Positions 37,341-37,375 of a stretch of DNA of 64,000 nt are shown here, piece by piece. Numbering within the stretch: the stretch's first letter is position 1; each line of letters begins with the position of its first letter. Below the pieces are notes generated by a model. The model did not search any database and had not been told where the DNA came from. It saw only the letters and a program-made list of their open reading frames with translations. The DNA comes from Escherichia coli O157:H7 (lineage in GTDB: Bacteria > Pseudomonadota > Gammaproteobacteria > Enterobacterales > Enterobacteriaceae): the NCBI RefSeq assembly GCF_013167455.1, contig NZ_CP038328.1. One strand, written 5' to 3'. The translations under genes were made by a program, and so were the position numbers.

Positions 37341-37375
37341 TTTTGGGGAAGGGTTTTGGGGAAAGTTTTGGGGAA
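37341..37375 (+). repeat. Three direct TTTTGGGGAA repeats downstream of int
   Basis: Read in sequence at 37341, 37354 and 37366; possible Int arm-type sites. Confidence 0.4.

Follow-up and report, generated by a model that had tools for sequence, protein, structure and literature searches.

Heterobivalent tyrosine integrases are established knowledge and provide the basis for the lambda-derived mechanism considered below. When scanned in the same way as the other elements compared here, the att site of lambda has P1 at -142 (direct) and P2 at -111 (inverted), and P'1, P'2 and P'3 at +54, +64 and +75. For phage 21, arm sites were reportedly proposed in the 1990s. The dodecamers of its att site are said to have been proposed as arm sites in the thesis of S. 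J. Schneider in 1992, and in 1997 Wang et al. are said to have delimited a minimal 21 attP of 366–418 bp, which included the outermost "repeated dodecamers", and to have found that the outer repeats are needed for Xis-free integration in vitro. In the open literature that we searched, no paper describing the phage 21 dodecamers was found, and the genome announcement of phage 21 does not discuss att. A memoir by Campbell states that phage 21 and e14 share the same site but differ in the specificity of integration and excision, and that the specificity determinants have been identified on the phage DNA (PMC3530522).

We analyzed a stretch of 64,000 nucleotides of E. coli O157:H7 DNA, here called the window, which matches O157:H7 chromosomes with 100% identity. 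On the plus strand, positions 37341–37375 read TTTTGGGGAA-GGG-TTTTGGGGAA-AG-TTTTGGGGAA, with a first spacer of 3 bp (GGG) and a second of 2 bp (AG), which gives a period of 13 and then 12 bp. The sequence-only reading had described three copies of a 10-mer separated by 2–3 bp, and this is correct: a zero-mismatch pattern search located TTTTGGGGAA at 37341, 37354 and 37366 and nowhere else in the 64-kb window. Tandem Repeats Finder reported the interval 37339–37381 with a period of 13, 3.4 copies and the consensus AGTTTTGGGGAAG. The 10-mer is the only non-trivial one in the whole window with three occurrences inside 45 bp, and comparable arrays were seen in none of 60 windows simulated with a first-order Markov model. 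Relative to the phage/host junction and in icd orientation, the copy nearest int (37341–37350) lies at +258, the middle copy (37354–37363) at +245 and the copy nearest the core (37366–37375) at +233. By lambda numbering, these are the analogues of P'3, P'2 and P'1, respectively.

The array is preceded on the plus strand by two recombination genes. The first, xis (35961–36197), encodes an excisionase of 78 amino acids (Pfam Exc PF07825, E=3.7e-5), and phage 21 and O157 genomes carry the same annotation. The second, int (36187–37329), encodes a phage 21-type, lambda-family heterobivalent tyrosine integrase of 380 amino acids, identified from its Pfam domains and by homology. Residues 1–71 correspond to Arm-DNA-bind_1 (PF09003, E=4.8e-27; score 94 bits, cutoff 22) and residues 200–367 to Phage_integrase (PF00589). 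The protein is 98.4% identical to phage 21 Int, 60% to e14 IntE and 34.5% to lambda Int and is a full-length homologue of the latter. The int stop codon runs up to 37329, and the first TTTTGGGGAA copy follows after 11 nt. On the other side of the array, a hairpin is located at 37397–37419, which agrees with the earlier placement of the repeats between the int stop and the icd terminator. The integration target icd, a hybrid host/phage gene for isocitrate dehydrogenase, follows on the minus strand (37443–38693), with its stop codon at 37443–37445.

Over a segment of 1.5 kb that takes in xis and int together with the repeats and the icd 3' end, phage 21 (M61865, OL657228) and about 28 further lambdoid phages show 97.9–99.1% identity to the window; the identity to M61865/OL657228 is 97.9% at the nucleotide level across 1502 bp. 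In OL657228, a misc_feature of 37 bp (27563–27599) is annotated as "attP consists of 3 subsites P1P2P3; consensus YYTTCCCCAAAA", and YYTTCCCCAAAA is the reverse complement of TTTTGGGGAA. The window and the phage 21 attP agree exactly in the three 10-mers, in the spacers and in the distance to the int stop. The two sites differ in that the phage also possesses the P arm, where a fourth copy is placed at -127, whereas the window contains the attL half only. We estimate at roughly 90% the probability that the three copies of TTTTGGGGAA are the arm-type sites of the P' (int-proximal) arm of a phage 21-type att site, kept in the attL of prophage Sp8.

The comparison with e14, the K-12 element at icd, points in the same direction. 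The repeats of e14 are positioned at -127, +234, +245 and +258, as compared to -127, +233, +245 and +258 in phage 21, and carry a different word, GTTATCAAAA at +234 and TTTATCAAAA in the middle copy at +245. Similar arrays follow the integrase genes of two further elements. In PPompW, three copies of TTTTGCAGAG are found right after int, and the integrase is 51% identical to that of the window. In the Klebsiella phage Kp4865-4, three copies of TTTTGATAA(C/A) directly follow int, and the N-terminal domain of the integrase is 84% identical to that of IntE. The sequence-only reading had suggested that the repeats stand where arm-type integrase sites of attL would be expected and had named phage 21 and e14 as the attP arms to compare. 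Its suggestion is supported: phage 21 has the identical array, annotated as the attP subsites P1P2P3, and bears a fourth copy across the core, and e14 has a different 10-mer at the same positions, which matches its diverged integrase; the arm-binding domain of Int agrees with this as well. The lack of TTTTGGGGAA in e14 does not refute the proposal, because e14 has its own word at the same positions.

The free phages provide a view of the arm that the window lacks. In the attP of phages 21, 4A7, ev207 and 2E9, a fourth exact copy of the 10-mer occurs in the same orientation on the far side of the core, at position -127 relative to the junction. It lies 360 bp from the third copy, and the first-to-last span is 397 bp (2742–3138 of the phage 21 segment). 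The measured span fits the minimal attP of 366–418 bp that Wang et al. reportedly delimited. The P arm of phages 21 and 4A7 and of e14 contains an IHF consensus, WATCAANNNNTTR, at -98, and in phages 21 and 4A7 an inverted, degenerate copy of the repeat with two mismatches, TTTTGGCTAA, is found at -74. The P' arm, which covers about 230 bp from the core to the repeats, yielded no strict match to the IHF consensus. The record of phage D2 (OM475427) was left out of this comparison due to a run of N in the first repeat and a chimeric sequence resembling attL and attR. In OM475427.1, the N run replaces the first repeat at about 2241–2247 of the segment, and from 2500 to 2640 an icd' fragment passes into host icd, after which the sequence switches abruptly to the middle of the P-arm repeat. 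The record looks like an assembly chimera of the attL and attR of a lysogen.

The P-arm copy also bears on the nature of the protein that would bind the repeats. They might be sites for the excisionase, analogous to X1-X1.5-X2 of lambda, where an Xis filament forms on direct repeats. Three direct repeats with a period of 12–13 bp do resemble the array of such a recombination directionality factor, and Xis changes in step with the repeat word between 21, e14 and PPompW. Since Int and Xis diverge in parallel in the elements compared, covariation alone does not tell Int sites from Xis sites. Sites on both arms are, however, the hallmark of integrase arm sites, and the copies on both arms, including the one at -127, therefore indicate Int rather than Xis. 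Moreover, the Xis sites of lambda are located in the int-distal P arm, while the int-proximal triple corresponds to P'1–P'3, and the phage 21 record labels the repeats as subsites of attP. The requirement for the outer repeats in Xis-free integration, which Wang et al. reportedly observed, also speaks against the excisionase. We consider binding by Xis very unlikely and retain the integrase as the probable ligand.

The conservation of the repeats was studied in more distant loci. A total of 80 loci were retrieved from IMG/VR, 71 of which were uninformative since they end at most 6 nt from the int stop. The copy nearest int is exact in all nine related loci that have downstream sequence. In seven IMG/VR loci with integrases that are 80–83% identical and an N-terminal domain that is nearly unchanged, all three TTTTGGGGAA copies are exact and the first begins 12 nt past the int stop, while the spacers, the flanks and the terminator have diverged. 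Across nine diverged loci, 27 of 27 copies are exact and the spacers are variable. Likewise, in an E. coli attL that is 95.9% identical, every substitution falls outside the repeats. The word is thus invariant with the same Int and changed at a fixed position with a different Int, which looks like the behavior of protein recognition sites. Short tandem arrays can also form by slippage, and a neutral product of tandem duplication without function would account for the repeats as such. This explanation is very improbable given the 27 exact copies in nine diverged loci despite their varying spacers, the separate fourth copy 360 bp away in attP, and the identical positions of a different word with other integrases. 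It is also at odds with the wide occurrence of the locus in E. coli: of 5426 complete genomes, 1678 match at least 80% of a 171-bp query that reaches from the int 3' end across the repeats to the terminator.

The same set of loci bears on a role in RNA or DNA structure. The array contains four G runs on the plus strand (GGGG, GGG, GGGG and GGGG) within 35 nt and is situated in the 3' UTR of int, upstream of the hairpin, and might hence act as a G-quadruplex or as an RNA element on int expression or termination. However, the GGG of the first spacer is not kept, since the loci with 80–83% identical integrases read GAA, ACG or TAG at this place, and G runs are missing from the repeats at the corresponding positions in e14, Kp4865-4 and PPompW. 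The predicted fold of 37325–37445 is unremarkable besides the terminator (z = -1.84), and no match was obtained in Rfam (best E = 0.12). A structural role of this kind has very little probability, about as little as slippage. The unit TTTTGGGG is identical to the telomere repeat of Oxytricha and Stylonychia (T4G4). We dismissed the likeness as a coincidence, considering that the counterparts in e14 and PPompW have not kept the G runs and that the fourth G run is not conserved.

A coding function was also considered. The program-made list of open reading frames contains a minus-strand frame of 51 amino acids (37243–37398), in which the repeats would encode a repeated peptide (...SPKLSPKPFPKT...). 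The frame starts with TTG, is antisense to the int 3' end and is unannotated in all records examined, and the word is wholly changed in e14 and PPompW while its position is retained. We regard this as the least credible of the alternatives, with next to no chance of being correct. The arm-site interpretation, on the other hand, is consistent with the features of its class: the integrase has an arm-DNA-binding domain, the word is absent from attB and is present on both arms of attP (scored on the free phages 21, 4A7, ev207 and 2E9, as the window has the int-side arm alone), and the word is kept with a conserved Int and changed in place with a diverged Int. The locus also has the features of a phage 21-type int-att module, namely near-identity to phage 21 and insertion at the icd 3' end, whose terminal part comes from the phage.

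The boundaries of the att site were defined by alignment to phage and host sequences. A block of 218 bp on the minus strand (37390–37607), consisting of the icd 3' end and the terminator, is shared by phage and host and represents the part of icd that is supplied by the prophage in attL. In BLAST, it is 95.4% identical to the icdC region of K-12 across 218 bp. Alignment to four phage attP regions showed that phage attP and host icd part company just past 37607, and the approximate core or crossover region was placed at the inner edge of the block (37590–37607) from the alignment ends. The empty attB of strain DS26-1, in which iraM adjoins icd, shows homology to the phage only from 37390 inward, and the repeats are absent from this unoccupied icd-iraM junction. 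From the bounds given by the attP and attB alignments, we conclude that the phage carries the last 165 bp of icd plus the terminator. The triple repeat is situated 15 bp outside this phage-borne block. The phage has to carry this segment and the terminator to keep icd intact after insertion, and since both lie between the core and the P' sites, the latter are unusually distant from the core.

The phage-supplied intrinsic terminator of the hybrid icd gene (37397–37419, minus strand) has a stem of 9 bp, a loop of 5 nt and a T run on the minus strand. In OL657228, a terminator is annotated at the equivalent place, followed by an icd-like pseudogene. The top of the stem and the loop (37403–37413) occur as two alleles, CGTGTTATACG and CGTATAACACG, which are inverted relative to each other. 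The CGTGTTATACG allele is present in the window, in phages 21, 4A7 and ev207 and in the empty attB, and the CGTATAACACG allele in 2E9, D2 and strain B1.H1.18. The difference resembles the flip of a palindrome and not a series of point mutations.

Published prophage maps locate the Sakai prophage Sp8 at icd (PMC8190617), and the element in the window is this defective lambdoid prophage of E. coli O157:H7. To the left of icd, it contains xis, int, DLP12-like genes (emrE, ybcK, rusA, Q and lysis genes) and a full set of head and tail genes. The interior at 27000–34100 is DLP12-like, with the serine recombinase gene ybcK, emrE, ren, rusA, ybcO and ybcN, and also includes Q, rzpD, bor and ybcV/W. 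The gene ompT is located beyond the left end of the prophage, at 3412–4365 of the next 10-kb segment to the left. An O-like replication gene (35033–35960, minus strand) is truncated at its N-terminus and adjoins xis, and the early region between xis and O (exo/bet, N, cI, cro and cII) is deleted. The prophage looks like a mosaic that combines a 21-type integration cassette with a DLP12-type phage.

[quoted passage not shown] No attR, P arm, fourth repeat or second icd 3' end was found in the window, in the adjoining 10 kb or in the further 40 kb to the left. The left flank consists of IS1203, a truncated ycgH-type autotransporter gene and then minCDE, and the iraM-side flank of K-12 and of the empty site is absent here. 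The attR junction has therefore been deleted and the array is an orphan half-site. Sp8 has been judged excisable in silico, with intact int and xis genes, yet no circular form was obtained experimentally (PMC2669165, Table 2). The missing attR would explain this failure to circularize; an intact int, an intact xis and intact P' sites combined with a missing attR offer a concrete reason for it. By analogy with lambda, the orphan sites can presumably still bind Int but not support excision. With only one arm present, a current function of the array in this strain is doubtful.

In phage 21, CII-binding sites (TTGYN6TTGY) are annotated downstream of att (3207–3255 and 4263–4276 of the segment) and not upstream of int. 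The memoir by Campbell mentions this placement, along with a sib-like stem-loop, as a way of controlling int that had yet to be resolved (PMC3530522). The region that holds these sites is missing from the window because attR is missing.

If the repeats work as they do in lambda, each Int protomer would place its N-terminal arm-binding domain on one 10-mer, while the C-terminal domains of the same protomer would contact the core about 230–265 bp away inside icd. IHF-induced bends would bring the arms to the core and allow the intasome to assemble. The intasome would then carry out integration (attP x attB) or, together with Xis, excision (attL x attR), and the subsets of arm sites used would be expected to differ between integration and Xis-aided excision.

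The locus has several parallels and differences relative to the known systems. The element e14 shares with the 21-type site the icd target, the junction, the repeat positions and the IHF consensus at -98, and in e14 too the repeats are found just beyond the phage-borne icd terminator. The two differ in the word, which in icd orientation is GTTATCAAAA in e14 as compared to TTCCCCAAAA here (4 of 10 positions differ), in the integrase (IntE is 60% identical) and in the distance of int from the repeats, which is approximately 3.3 kb in e14, with ymfD, ymfE and lit in between. Since the 21-type int directly adjoins the repeats, e14 appears to have received cargo genes between its P' sites and int. 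In the K-12 segment of e14 (1712–1783), the sRNA C0293 together with ymfD, ymfE and lit is found between the arm repeats and intE. The sRNA svsR/C0293 was considered as a lead for this locus and rejected, since svsR maps to the cI gene and not here. The identical positions and swapped words make 21 and e14 a clean natural case of co-divergence between arm sites and integrase.

PPompW, an EHEC prophage with ompW as its target, and the e14-type Kp4865-4 have in common with the window three tandem 10-mers that start with TTTTG and are positioned about 20 nt or less past the int stop, with a period of 13 and 11 bp and with the 3' end of the target gene carried next in both. Their words differ from that of the window, and their integrases are 51% and 57% identical to the window Int, respectively.

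Lambda P'1-P'2-P'3 (consensus C/AAGTCACTAT) likewise consists of three tandem direct sites that abut or overlap the int stop in the int-proximal arm, and in both systems the opposite arm combines an IHF site with a P1-like site in direct and a P2-like site in inverted orientation. The integrases are homologous and have the same arm-binding domain. On the int strand, lambda P'2 reads ATTTTGACTG, which shares the TTTTG start with TTTTGGGGAA. The differences concern the sequence, the period (10–11 bp in lambda as compared to 12–13 bp here), the distance to the core (+54 to +84 as compared to about +233 to +267 in the 21-type) and the P arm, in which only one clear site was found in the 21-type. 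The 21-type site thus reproduces the lambda plan P1-H1-P2...core...P'1-P'2-P'3 with a P' arm that is approximately 180 bp longer. A P' arm of about 233–267 bp would imply an intasome geometry unlike that of lambda.

The words of 21, e14, PPompW and lambda may also reflect a modular arm-site code, in which a TTTTG half is combined with a variable pentamer that is read by the few residues of the N-terminal domain in which otherwise similar integrases differ; we offer this as a tentative idea that is more likely to be wrong than right. The variable pentamers are GGGAA (21), ATAAC (e14), CAGAG (PPompW) and ACTGA (lambda P'2). In an alignment of the Int N-terminal domains of 21 and e14, residues 17–24 are CKLDKRTG and PLYSRKVN, respectively, and residue 29 is Q in the former and R in the latter. 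If the code is real, the arm specificity of 21 and e14, which bars mutual excision, could be swapped by a handful of substitutions.

The array can serve in prophage typing as a marker for the true attL of 21-type prophages inserted at icd. Most of the boundaries called in IMG/VR end at the int stop and thereby miss both the arm sites and the core; in 71 of the 80 prophage contigs, the arm-type sites are left out along with the stretch of about 280 bp that leads to the true att core. In relation to what has been described before, the array is the same feature as the annotated P'-arm repeats of phage 21, in the class for which lambda P'1–P'3 is the type, and as such it is already known and ordinary. 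The additions made here are small and consist of the positional match between 21 and e14 and the combination of TTTTG with a variable pentamer across four integrase lineages, along with the missing attR of Sp8 and the omission of the sites from the IMG/VR boundaries.
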